The notes below the pieces were generated by a model. That model did no database searches. It had not been told where the DNA came from and was given only the letters and a program-made list of their open reading frames with translations. The translations under genes and the position numbers were made by a program. A DNA stretch of 64,000 nucleotides. Origin: Escherichia coli. Lineage in GTDB: Bacteria; Pseudomonadota; Gammaproteobacteria; Enterobacterales; Enterobacteriaceae. Positions 6,378 to 9,545 of the stretch are shown one piece after another. Numbering within the stretch: position 1 is the stretch's first letter; each line of letters begins with the position of its first letter. The stretch lies in the NCBI RefSeq assembly GCF_003334405.1, contig NZ_QOWM01000001.1; one strand, given 5' to 3'.

Positions 6378-7076
6378 TTAAACGCTTTCTAACTGTTCTG
6401 CTGTGATGCTACCCAGATGTTGCGTTTTTCCTGCCAGATAGCGTGTTTTAAAGCGGGTAAAATGCTCGCCTAACCCTGCCGCCGCCCCGGTATCGCCGGC
6501 CATATCTAACAGTGCGATGGCTACCTCGGCAGTACAATATTGGCCTTCAGCCTGGGCTTCACGCAGGCGATAGGCAGAAAGCCGGGAAAGATCGACGGAA
6601 ATGACGGGAAGATTATCCAGATACGGACTTTTACGAAACATCTTGCGAGCTTCCGGCCAGGTACCATCGAGCATGATAAACAGCGGTGGCTTACCGGCAG
6701 GTGGTGTGAAGATCACTTCCCGTTGCTCATCAGCATACGAAGCGGGAAAGACCACCATTGGCTGATAGTCCGGGTTTTGCACCAACTCCAGCAAATCCTG
6801 CGAGGGTTCGGTACGCGACCATTGAAACGCAACGGTATCAGGCAAAATATCAGCAATGAGACGCCCGGTATTACTGGGCTTCATTGGCTCGGTGTCGAAC
6901 ATCAGCAAACAGAAGCGACTTTTTGCTTGTGCTGGGGTAATTGTCGAACAGAGACATAATTTCTCTGGCAAAAGACAGCGTTGGCAGCGACGAACGCGAT
7001 TACCGCGGGCAAGAAAAGGACGTGTTGCGCGCGCAATACGCTCGGCGCGTAACTGGAGAACAGCGTTTTCGGTCAT
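6378..7076 (-). CDS. yfiP: DTW-domain tRNA-uridine aminocarboxypropyltransferase
   Basis: 232-aa product from MTENAVLQLRAERI...; DTW motif (MLDGTWPEA) and N-terminal Cys cluster; track ORF extends 17 codons upstream. Confidence 0.88.
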   Translation of the reverse strand: MTENAVLQLRAERIARATRPFLARGNRVRRCQRCLLPEKLCLCSTITPAQAKSRFCLLMFDTEPMKPSNTGRLIADILPDTVAFQWSRTEPSQDLLELVQNPDYQPMVVFPASYADEQREVIFTPPAGKPPLFIMLDGTWPEARKMFRKSPYLDNLPVISVDLSRLSAYRLREAQAEGQYCTAEVAIALLDMAGDTGAAAGLGEHFTRFKTRYLAGKTQHLGSITAEQLESV

Positions 7077-7144
7077 AAGAGAGCGTCGAAAAAACGCCAT
7101 TGTCGCAGAGGAGAAAACGGGGCACAAGATGCGCCCCGGTAAGA

Positions 7145-7564
7145 TTAAAGAGATTCGTTCAGCCAGCTATCGAACGGCGCTTTCGGTACTGCGCCATTAA
7201 GCATGTCGACAACCTGACCGTTTTTGAAAATCATGATCGTCGGTATACTACGAATTCCAAAGCGACTGCTCAATTCACGTTCAGCTTCGGTATTCACTTT
7301 CACAAAGCGCACTTTACCGCTACGCTCTTGCGCGACATCTTCAAAAATTGGTGCGAAATTACGGCAGGGGCCGCACCACGGTGCCCAGAAGTCGATCACC
7401 ACAGGTAGATCATCCTTCAGCAATTTGTCGAGTGTTTCACCGGTCGCATTAATCACCTCTCCGTCAAACAAGTCGTGACCGCAGCGTCCGCATTTTGCCG
7501 CATCTTCGATCCGATCGTCGGGAATGCGATTGATGGCCTGACAATGGGTACAAACGGTATTCAT
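7145..7564 (-). CDS. trxC: thioredoxin 2
   Basis: 139 aa; N-terminal zinc-finger cysteines (CTHC...CGRC) plus WCGPC active site. Confidence 0.95.
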
Positions 7565-7770
7565 AACTAACCTCGGGATGAGTAAGGAGACTTATCGGCA
7601 ACGACGCCGGTATGTTTCTAATATGTTACATATTATCGGGGACATTGTTCCAGACAACAATCTGTTTTATTCAATAGGTATGATAGTCGCAGGCTTTGGT
7701 ACGAAATCATGGCGAACCGCGCGGACTTCGGGTAATCTGCGCGCTTCGCGCAGCGCTGGTGGAGAAAAGC

Positions 7771-8808
7771 ATGAACGATGAAATGAAAGGTAAAAGCGGC
7801 AAGGTCAAAGTGATGTATGTCCGCAGTGATGATGATTCTGATAAACGTACCCACAACCCGCGTACCGGGAAAGGGGGCGGGCGTCCAGGAAAATCTCGTG
7901 CTGACGGTGGCCGTCGCCCCGCCCGCGATGACAAACAGAGTCAGCCCCGTGACCGCAAGTGGGAAGATTCGCCGTGGCGCACGGTTTCCCGCGCGCCGGG
8001 TGATGAGACGCCGGAAAAGGCCGATCACGGTGGCATCAGTGGTAAAAGTTTTATTGATCCGGAAGTGTTGCGTCGTCAGCGTGCGGAAGAAACCCGCGTC
8101 TACGGCGAAAATGCATGTCAGGCACTTTTCCAGAGCCGTCCGGAAGCGATTGTTCGCGCCTGGTTTATCCAGAGTGTAACGCCGCGTTTTAAAGAAGCTT
8201 TGCGCTGGATGGCAGCAAACCGCAAAGCGTACCATGTGGTGGATGAAGCGGAATTGACAAAAGCGTCAGGCACGGAACATCACGGCGGCGTTTGCTTCTT
8301 GATCAAAAAGCGTAACGGTACAACCGTGCAGCAGTGGGTAAGCCAGGCAGGCGCGCAGGATTGCGTTCTGGCACTGGAAAACGAATCTAACCCGCATAAC
8401 CTGGGTGGCATGATGCGCAGCTGCGCGCACTTCGGCGTGAAAGGTGTCGTGGTGCAGGATGCGGCACTGCTGGAGTCGGGGGCGGCTATCCGTACCGCAG
8501 AAGGCGGCGCAGAGCACGTTCAGCCGATTACTGGCGACAACATTGTTAACGTGCTGGATGATTTCCGTCAGGCAGGTTACACCGTAGTGACCACTTCCAG
8601 CGAGCAGGGTAAACCGCTGTTCAAAACTAGTCTGCCAGCGAAAATGGTACTGGTGCTGGGTCAGGAATATGAAGGGTTACCGGATGCCGCACGCGATCCG
8701 AACGATCTGCGCGTGAAGATTGACGGTACGGGCAACGTTGCCGGGCTGAATATCTCTGTCGCAACCGGCGTTTTGCTTGGTGAATGGTGGCGTCAGAATA
8801 AAGCCTGA
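7771..8808 (+). CDS. yfiF: SpoU/TrmH-family RNA 2'-O-methyltransferase with basic disordered N-terminal extension
   Basis: 345-aa product from [11 protein letters not shown]... at ATG 7771; C-terminal SpoU methyltransferase domain. Confidence 0.9.
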
Positions 8809-8855: not shown

Positions 8856-9545
8856 TTACTCACTCTCTGCCGGTAATACTGGCATCCAGTCAATCGGCGT
8901 CTCGCCACGTTGTTCCAGCCACTGATTTGCCAGCACAAAATGGTTGCAGCCAAAGAATCCACGATGCGCCGAAAGCGGCGACGGATGCGGTGCTTTCAGT
9001 ACATGATGGCGTTGCTTATCTATAATCGCCCCTTTCTTTTGCGCATGCGATCCCCACAACAAAAACACCACGCCTTCGCGATGCTGGTTAATCAGGCTGA
9101 TCACTTTATCGGTGAAGGTTTCCCAGCCGAGGCTGGCGTGGGAATGCGCCTGACCTGCGCGTACCGTCAACACAGTATTGAGTAGCAGAACGCCCTGACG
9201 CGCCCAGCTTTCAAGATAACCATGATTAGGGCGGGTGAAGCCCGGAATAGTATTTTCCAGCTCTTTATACATATTCAATAATGACGGAGGAATGGCAATG
9301 CCGGGACGAACGGAAAATGCCAGACCATGCGCCTGTCCCGGTCCGTGATAAGGATCCTGGCCGAGAATCACCACTTTAACGTCACCCAACTCTGTAAAGC
9401 GGAACGCGTTAAAGACATCTTTTTGTGGTGGGTAGATAGTGACGCCGGACTGCCGCTCGCTGGCGACGGTCTGAAGGGTATTAAGAAAATAGGGTTGCTG
9501 CTTCTCTTCAGCCAGCACGTCATGCCAGGTTAATTCGTTAGCCAT
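8856..9545 (-). CDS. ung: uracil-DNA glycosylase
   Basis: 229 aa, [20 protein letters not shown]..., GQDPYH motif. Confidence 0.97.

Follow-up and report, generated by a model that had tools for sequence, protein, structure and literature searches.

What does a predicted disordered arm of about one hundred residues do at the head of an RNA methyltransferase, and does it belong to the functional protein at all? The question is raised by yfiF in a 64,000-nt stretch of Escherichia coli DNA (assembly GCF_003334405.1, contig NZ_QOWM01000001.1; hereafter, the window), in which the gene occupies 7771–8808 on the plus strand and encodes 345 aa plus stop. The encoded protein shows 100% identity to cluster P0001, that of E. 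coli YfiF, and it is identified as YfiF by a full-length match (aa 1–345) to the NCBIfam equivalog NF008117 (= PRK10864), with 667.6 bits against a cut-off of 267. yfiF is a core gene, matched in 5426/5426 complete E. coli genomes by a 1.5-kb query spanning the open reading frame (ORF), and the matched genomes annotate it as 'yfiF: tRNA/rRNA methyltransferase'. The existence of the tail and its charged, disordered nature were already published (Tkaczuk et al. 2007). Its modular substructure, consisting of three constrained motifs and repeat-driven spacers, is new here and has no description in the literature examined.

The initial annotation placed an extension of about 90 residues ahead of the SpoU part of the protein, at 7771–8055; these positions correspond to codons 1–95, and the peptide it quoted is identical to the translation. 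The extension is present and somewhat longer. The sequence of the RlmB crystal structure 1gz0, the nearest solved structure, aligns from YfiF residue 108 onward, and residue 5 of E. coli RlmB (243 aa) corresponds to YfiF residue 110 (28% identity over 247 aa); therefore, the tail comprises about 107 aa (aa 1–107, 7771..8091, plus strand). A Pfam scan of aa 1–109 gave no match. Together with composition and AlphaFold2 (AF2) models, these comparisons delimit a charged, hydrophobic-poor segment that is predicted to be disordered to approximately aa 93.

The tail had also been described as rich in lysine, arginine and glycine and as strongly basic. The composition of aa 1–105 is R 14.3%, D 12.4%, G 12.4%, K 10.5%, S 8.6% and P 7.6%, with 26 K+R, 18 D+E and only 15/105 (14%) hydrophobic residues. 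This amounts to a net charge of +8 (+0.076 per residue, 42% charged), an isoelectric point (pI) of 10.1 and a grand average of hydropathy (GRAVY) of −1.69, compared with a pI of 6.1 and a GRAVY of −0.24 for the other 240 residues. The net basic character is therefore confirmed, but 'strongly basic' is an overstatement, given the 18 acidic residues, and applies only to aa 31–60 (net +7). The tail is a net-positive polyampholyte in which Asp is as frequent as Gly. Assignment of the E. coli tail to the RGG/RG-box class was rejected, as it contains zero RGG and zero RG, and only two GGR (GGGR and GGRR); truly RGG-rich tails exist among distant homologues, such as P0159 and P0162. Mimicry of the C-terminal motif of the ribosomal protein uL2 (WR.V...DH.HGG..G..F) was likewise set aside as a weak lead: WRTVSRAP... 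was compared with uL2 WRGVRPT...DHPHGGGEGRNF, giving a non-significant BLASTP E value of 2.6 in a single pairwise comparison, and YfiF has no Pfam match to Ribosomal_L2_C.

The prediction of disorder is confirmed. Arithmetic on the composition values gives the tail a normalized hydropathy of 0.31 vs a Uversky boundary of 0.44, on the natively unfolded side, whereas the YfiF core (0.47 vs 0.42) falls on the folded side. The 50 window ORFs with 200 aa or more contain 14,367 segments of 95 aa; the lowest hydrophobic fraction among them is that of the YfiF tail (0.105 vs a median of 0.337), and its charged fraction ranks second, after the C-terminal tail of SrmB, which places the tail well beyond the usual range of composition. 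Two AF2 runs were made, one with 84 diverse homologues and the other with 47 orthologues having a well-aligned tail. In both, aa 1–90 had a predicted local distance difference test (pLDDT) score of roughly 30–52 and essentially no secondary structure, while a helix began at residue 97 (97–106 in the better model) and ran into the L30e-like domain; the core exceeded 90 in the first run. Low hydrophobicity, high charge and lack of stable structure thus assign the tail, by prediction, to the intrinsically disordered regions. No solved structure similar to the tail was found at E ≤ 10, and YfiF itself is covered by none.

A compositionally odd region, overlapped by an antisense ORF of 200 aa (7633–8235), might simply lie outside the functional protein, either because the start is mis-annotated and the true one is Met15 or later or because the segment is a neutrally drifting leader. 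Some database entries do start at Met15 (the 331-aa forms P0037, P0038 and P0113), and the initial annotation had itself considered that a downstream start might remove the extension from the expressed protein. The comparative data speak otherwise, and we give this explanation next to no credence. A Shine-Dalgarno sequence, GGTGGAG (7758..7764, plus strand), lies 6 nt upstream of the ATG at 7771. In the upstream alignments, the AGGTGGAG/GGTGGAG core is held in nearly all Enterobacterales regions aligned, two Pantoea sequences having GGAGG only, and a GGAG(G) core precedes the conserved start codon in 20/20 sequences. Among 80 orthologous loci from Enterobacterales species genomes, 77 start with M-x-D/E-x-x-K/S-x-K-x-G-K-V and the remaining three matches begin one residue in; the 78 Met-starting ORFs (77 orthologous loci and the window) are all intact, with 340–394 aa. 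The ratio of nonsynonymous to synonymous differences per site (pN/pS; Nei-Gojobori, pooled over 400 pairs) is 0.18 in codons 1–5 and 0.20 in codons 6–38, and residues 2–14 are conserved with synonymous variation. The string G.VKVMYVR is kept in homologues at only 41–56% overall identity, with variants such as MSDNFISKKGNVKVMYVR at 41%, and aa 1–107 alone score 141 bits on positions 1–106 of the NF008117 profile. The antisense ORF was rejected as a real gene, being broken even in other Escherichia species, and the entries that start at Met15 are alternative gene calls rather than support for a later start. Given that the Shine-Dalgarno sequence and residues 2–14 are conserved and under purifying selection, the alignments indicate that the annotated start codon is real and that the tail is translated and under purifying selection; these comparisons effectively rule out a mis-annotated start or a leader without function. 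A different kind of database entry is represented by P0121 and P0124, which begin with the translation of an out-of-frame ORF (7817–8179, +1 frame) fused to the genuine YfiF; such entries have the appearance of gene calls that slipped out of frame in the G-rich DNA encoding the tail, not of real isoforms.

Selection is distributed very unevenly along the tail, as seen from column entropies in 108 Enterobacteriaceae protein clusters and from pN/pS in 78 orthologous coding sequences. Motif A (aa 6–38, 7786..7884), which contains KVKVMYVR, has an entropy of 0.27 and a pN/pS of 0.20. It is followed by a semi-conserved basic stretch (aa 39–52, 7885..7926; entropy 0.80, pN/pS 0.43) and a hypervariable Arg/Asp/Lys/Glu spacer (aa 53–66, 7927..7968; 1.91 and 0.69). 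Motif B (aa 67–76, 7969..7998; 0.17 and 0.06), with a PW core that recurs in distant homologues, is the most constrained segment of YfiF. A second variable spacer, GDETPEKA (aa 77–84, 7999..8022; 1.26 and 0.62), separates it from motif C (aa 85–107, 8023..8091; 0.13 and 0.18), of which aa 97–106 form the predicted helix. The corresponding values are 0.13 and 0.08 for the L30e-like domain (aa 108–181 as scored) and 0.55 and 0.245 for the SpoU domain (aa 199–336 as scored). With a pN/pS of 0.06–0.20 in the motifs, 0.245 in the SpoU domain and 0.6–0.7 in the spacers, the tail is modular, its three motifs being constrained like the catalytic domain or more and the spacers between them being near-neutral. 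The description of the tail as uniformly low-complexity does not hold, since highly conserved linear motifs make up about 60% of its length.

The spacers vary in length as well as in sequence. Within Enterobacteriaceae, the first spacer measures 12–46 aa, E. coli being among the shortest, and it has grown by in-frame tandem repeats, such as the 15-nt units encoding DDRKR/DDRPR in Enterobacter and Lelliottia. The Superficieibacter spacer contains an RD dipeptide run, and that of Sodalis has ten RGDAP-type units; loci L016 (3176–3273) and L039 and protein P0318 exemplify these expansions. One Sodalis protein bearing such repeats even receives a Pfam pentapeptide-repeat match (PF05671).

An extension of this kind had been called atypical for TrmH/SpoU enzymes. 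As a general statement this is correct: RlmB has no tail, and in the NCBIfam profiles of RlmB, TrmH and TrmL the matched domain is preceded by just 3, 18 and 9 positions, respectively. Within the YfiF-like subfamily, it does not apply, and the NF008117 profile itself includes the tail. When 1.84 billion cluster representatives were searched exhaustively, 355 proteins had E < 1e-30; the core domain was present in 148 of the top 150 matches, and for all 148 the score with the YfiF core exceeded that with E. coli RlmB. Among 126 non-fragmentary cluster representatives, the extension had at least 50 aa (up to 367 aa) in 64 and fewer than 20 aa in 36. The pooled tails consist of R 16.8%, P 10.7%, D 9.1%, G 9.0%, S 8.2% and E 7.6%, with a median charged fraction of 0.38, and 59/64 are net-positive. 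The PW dipeptide, usually as [S/D/K]PW followed by basic residues, occurs in 15/64 tails, vs 5.0 expected and a maximum of 12 in 1000 composition-preserving shuffles. Organism names were recovered for only a handful of the distant tail-bearing homologues, most of which are metagenomic proteins, and the genome scan for yfiF loci gave Enterobacterales only. The named tail carriers are Xenorhabdus, Brenneria, Sodalis, Zophobihabitans (199 aa), Pseudoalteromonas, Alkalimonas, Arsukibacterium, Arenimonas, Permianibacter (270 aa) and a Bdellovibrionota metagenome-assembled genome (MAG; 162 aa), while a Dongiaceae MAG encodes a homologue without a tail. From this distribution, a charged, net-positive N-terminal arm is a common but dispensable trait of YfiF-like proteins, with a lineage-specific sequence.

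The arm is attached to a conventional enzyme. Pfam detects an L30e-like RNA-binding domain (SpoU_sub_bind, PF08032; aa 110–181, 8098..8313, plus strand; E = 1.2e-14), which aligns to the N-terminal domain of RlmB, and a SpoU (TrmH-class) methyltransferase domain (SpoU_methylase, PF00588; aa 199–336, 8365..8778, plus strand; E = 1.6e-31). The latter carries motif 1 (N..R), motif 2 (E) and motif 3 ((S)LN.S) of the class, and the fusion of the former to its N-terminus is the RlmB-like architecture (COG0566B/C). Residues N207, R216, E299 and N327 align with conserved motif residues of RlmB; N207, R216, R241, N327 and S329 are invariant in 78 orthologues, and residue 299 is Glu in 70 and Asp in 8. 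Tkaczuk et al. (2007) described YfiF as a gammaproteobacterial RlmB paralogue in COG0566B, the 'YfiF lineage', with all the residues characteristic of 2'-O-methyltransferases conserved (PMC1829167). YfiF was rejected as an equivalog of RlmB, the 23S rRNA Gm2251 enzyme, as it reaches 117.8 bits vs a cut-off of 160.15 with TIGR00186 and 92 vs 366 with NF008386. The domain and motif content thus identifies YfiF as a putative RlmB-paralogous SpoU-class 2'-O-ribose RNA methyltransferase, consisting of an L30e-like domain and a knotted SpoU domain. Two substitutions were observed in motif 3: the Ser of ESLNVS (64/78 orthologues) is Gly in Escherichia and Kluyvera (AGLNIS; aa 325, 8743–8745), and the usual 'IP' is replaced by 'ID' in most Enterobacteriaceae.

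To our knowledge, every 2'-O-methyl site catalogued in E. coli rRNA and tRNA is assigned to an enzyme other than YfiF. YfiF has reportedly been linked to replication timing by GeZi et al. in 2021. The initial annotation was right that the substrate is not established, and this is still so in the most recent dedicated study, from 2024, where methylation of rRNA or tRNA by YfiF is a hypothesis only (PMC11066096). The m6A2030 modification is still present in a ΔyfiF strain (PMC3936739). A 2012 survey of large-scale datasets found that YfiF co-purifies with ribosomal proteins and rRNA-modification enzymes and put it forward as a candidate ribosome-biogenesis factor (PMC3384335). In the 2024 study, which assayed the full-length protein and mentions neither tail nor disorder, YfiF was recovered as an RNA-binding protein in vivo by orthogonal organic phase separation (OOPS), and individual-nucleotide resolution crosslinking and immunoprecipitation (iCLIP) gave crosslinks to rRNA, tRNA, CsrB/C, ArrS, ChiX and its own mRNA (PMC11066096). 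RNA binding shifted with growth phase, and ΔyfiF had the strongest growth defect of the eight knockouts tested (PMC11066096).

Several known systems bear comparison with YfiF and its tail. RlmB (1gz0) has the same two-domain core as YfiF and shares motifs 1–3, but it begins directly at the L30e-like domain, and its substrate is known, unlike that of YfiF. In eukaryotes, the MRM1/MRM3-type extension includes a mitochondrial import signal, a role that is inapplicable to bacterial YfiF. These mitochondrial enzymes, MRM1/Pet56 and MRM3/RNMTL1, are RlmB-like with positively charged N-terminal extensions, and Tkaczuk et al. grouped them with YfiF on that point (PMC1829167). TrmH, TrmJ and TsnR depend on their terminal extensions for RNA binding or activity (PMC9508554). 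In Trm10, a positively charged, disordered N-terminal extension of approximately 80 residues, invisible in the crystal, is needed for tRNA recognition (PMC3874184). This extension precedes a SPOUT domain and offers the nearest parallel to a possible mode of action of the YfiF tail, although Trm10 is a eukaryotic/archaeal monomer of another SPOUT branch that methylates bases (m1G9/m1A9), its extension has no sequence similarity to the YfiF tail, and the requirement was shown for Trm10 only. Within the window itself, the C-terminal tail of SrmB (especially 12069–12320) is the only stretch as charged as the YfiF tail, and it is also of low hydrophobicity. SrmB is a DEAD-box helicase of 50S assembly with a Lys/Arg-rich C-terminal tail, and basic tails of this kind anchor DEAD-box helicases of ribosome assembly on structured RNA. 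The SrmB tail differs in being Lys-rich and much more basic, in its C-terminal position on an unrelated fold and in lacking PW and KVKVMYVR; similarity between both tails was tested and rejected (E = 1.8).

Because extensions of Trm10, TrmH, TrmJ and TsnR provide precedents and the tails of YfiF-like proteins are almost universally net-positive, we lean towards an auxiliary tether that would hold YfiF to RNA or pre-ribosomes by means of lineage-specific docking motifs, and consider this somewhat probable. The translated and selected arm, an intrinsically disordered, net-positive polyampholyte covering the first 95–107 residues or so, would raise the encounter rate with, and the affinity for, large structured RNA through its basic stretches. 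The three invariant linear motifs might fold on binding and make specific contacts, while the Arg/Asp-rich spacers would only set the reach and thus be free to vary in length. The L30e-like and SpoU domains would then place the target ribose, so that the tail would give affinity and targeting, and nucleotide choice would not be made by the tail alone. The initial annotation had likened the tail to RNA-binding tails of ribosome-associated proteins and suggested that it may be the specificity determinant, an interpretation that is partly supported: plausible, but partly overstated. The hypervariable sequence and length of the tail across lineages, set against a conserved core, argue against it as the sole determinant of the methylated nucleotide and favour a role in affinity or targeting.

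A number of points weigh against a tether to RNA. The L30e-like and SpoU domains alone could account for the RNA crosslinking of full-length YfiF. With 17% acidic residues and a net charge of only +8, the tail is weaker than classic basic RNA-binding tails, and it is far less rich in K/R than the SrmB tail of the window. Around half of the YfiF-like proteins have little or no tail, which is therefore not required for the core activity of the family. With no methylation target known for YfiF, a role in RNA targeting also has no identified destination. Finally, short conserved motifs in a disordered region are equally typical of protein-docking motifs.

This last point leads to a different function, in which the tail is mainly an arm for protein docking or assembly, with RNase E and the degradosome, RNase R, RluC, PhoL or ribosomal proteins as candidate partners, or a driver of partitioning into RNase E-type ribonucleoprotein bodies, and RNA contact would be secondary. 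Invariant short motifs amid variable disordered spacers are the classic signature of linear protein-interaction motifs, and a polyampholyte with Arg/Asp repeats may resemble sequences that partition into condensates. The listed physical interactors of YfiF include Rne, Rnr, RluC and PhoL (PMC11066096), YfiF is among the RNase E-enriched proteins in a 2026 study by crosslinking and size-exclusion chromatography–mass spectrometry (SEC-MS) (PMC13106914), and it co-elutes with FkpB (PMC7353009). However, these interactions all come from high-throughput or database sources, are possibly bridged by RNA, and include zero partners mapped to the tail. The net-positive charge of tails in distant lineages (59/64) is more easily explained by a common nucleic-acid ligand, and the motif sequences are not common to the neighbouring SrmB tail. 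We regard a mainly protein-docking arm as an unlikely explanation, though one to be kept in mind.

The tail could also act on YfiF itself, as an autoinhibitory arm that would cover the active site or the RNA-binding surface until displaced, as a determinant of turnover or solubility, or as part of the binding to its own mRNA. The crosslinks to that mRNA and the growth-phase dependence of binding are consistent with self-regulation, acidic patches (DDDSD, WEDS and GDETPE) could fold back on basic surfaces, and motif C passes as a predicted helix straight into the first domain. Nevertheless, the tail is docked on the core in neither AF2 model (pLDDT < 50), the sequence analysis gave no specific pointer to autoinhibition or a degron, and self-regulation leaves the near-constant net-positive charge of distant tails unexplained; we consider it improbable. 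Just before the Shine-Dalgarno sequence (7718–7766), a block CA.C.GGTAATCT[G/T]CGCGC has stayed invariant across genera from Escherichia to Erwinia, Pantoea and Edaphovirga, amid an otherwise divergent intergenic sequence. An RNA element was rejected here: no Rfam family scored above chance in the region, the 5' leader folded no better than shuffled sequence (z = 0.31), and a small GC hairpin at 7737–7753 is without covariation and lacks the 3' arm in Pantoea. The block, with a −10-like TAATCT and then a GC-rich discriminator, resembles a DNA element more than it does an RNA structure, and it may have a bearing on the binding to the yfiF mRNA that was reported for YfiF.

Genomic context provided no clue to the function of the tail in yfiF homologues. 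In E. coli, the order in the window is tapT–trxC–yfiF–ung–grcA–srmB, with yfiP/tapT (6378–7127), trxC (7145–7564), ung (8856–9545) and srmB (12069–13403) on the minus strand and yfiC (13415–14272) on the plus strand. Four RNA-modification or ribosome-biogenesis genes (tapT/yfiP, yfiF, srmB and yfiC) are found in a region of about 8 kb, although they do not constitute an operon. Between trxC and yfiF, the sequence ATGTTTCTAATATGTTACATATTATC (7613–7640) is highly conserved across Enterobacteriaceae and is probably a trxC promoter or regulator site. The trxC–yfiF–ung arrangement is specific to Enterobacterales, and distant homologues occur in unrelated contexts, with the exception of Permianibacter-type gammaproteobacteria. 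There, a long-tailed yfiF-like gene lies between a gene of the CCA-adding-enzyme type (PolyA_pol and HD) and one for an RsmB/F-type methyltransferase (loci L001, 2142–6536, and L085, 2489–7125); no such cca / yfiF-like / rsmF-like neighbourhood of RNA metabolism was seen in Enterobacterales.

Few SpoU-class RNA methyltransferases of E. coli are still orphans, and YfiF is one of them. Loss of yfiF reportedly slows growth, and the protein binds rRNA, tRNA and regulatory small RNAs in vivo; the tail is the feature that separates YfiF from the characterized paralogue RlmB. More speculatively, the three invariant motifs might form a docking code that delivers YfiF to a defined but short-lived site, for example a pre-50S assembly intermediate or a particle associated with RNase E, for substoichiometric or condition-specific 2'-O-methylation that current maps miss, or for an assembly role independent of methylation. 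We consider this doubtful, but if it were true, the tail, and not the catalytic core, would explain why a substrate has gone undetected for decades. The motif map and the evidence of selection contributed here make the question of whether the tail targets YfiF to ribosome precursors or to other particles directly testable.

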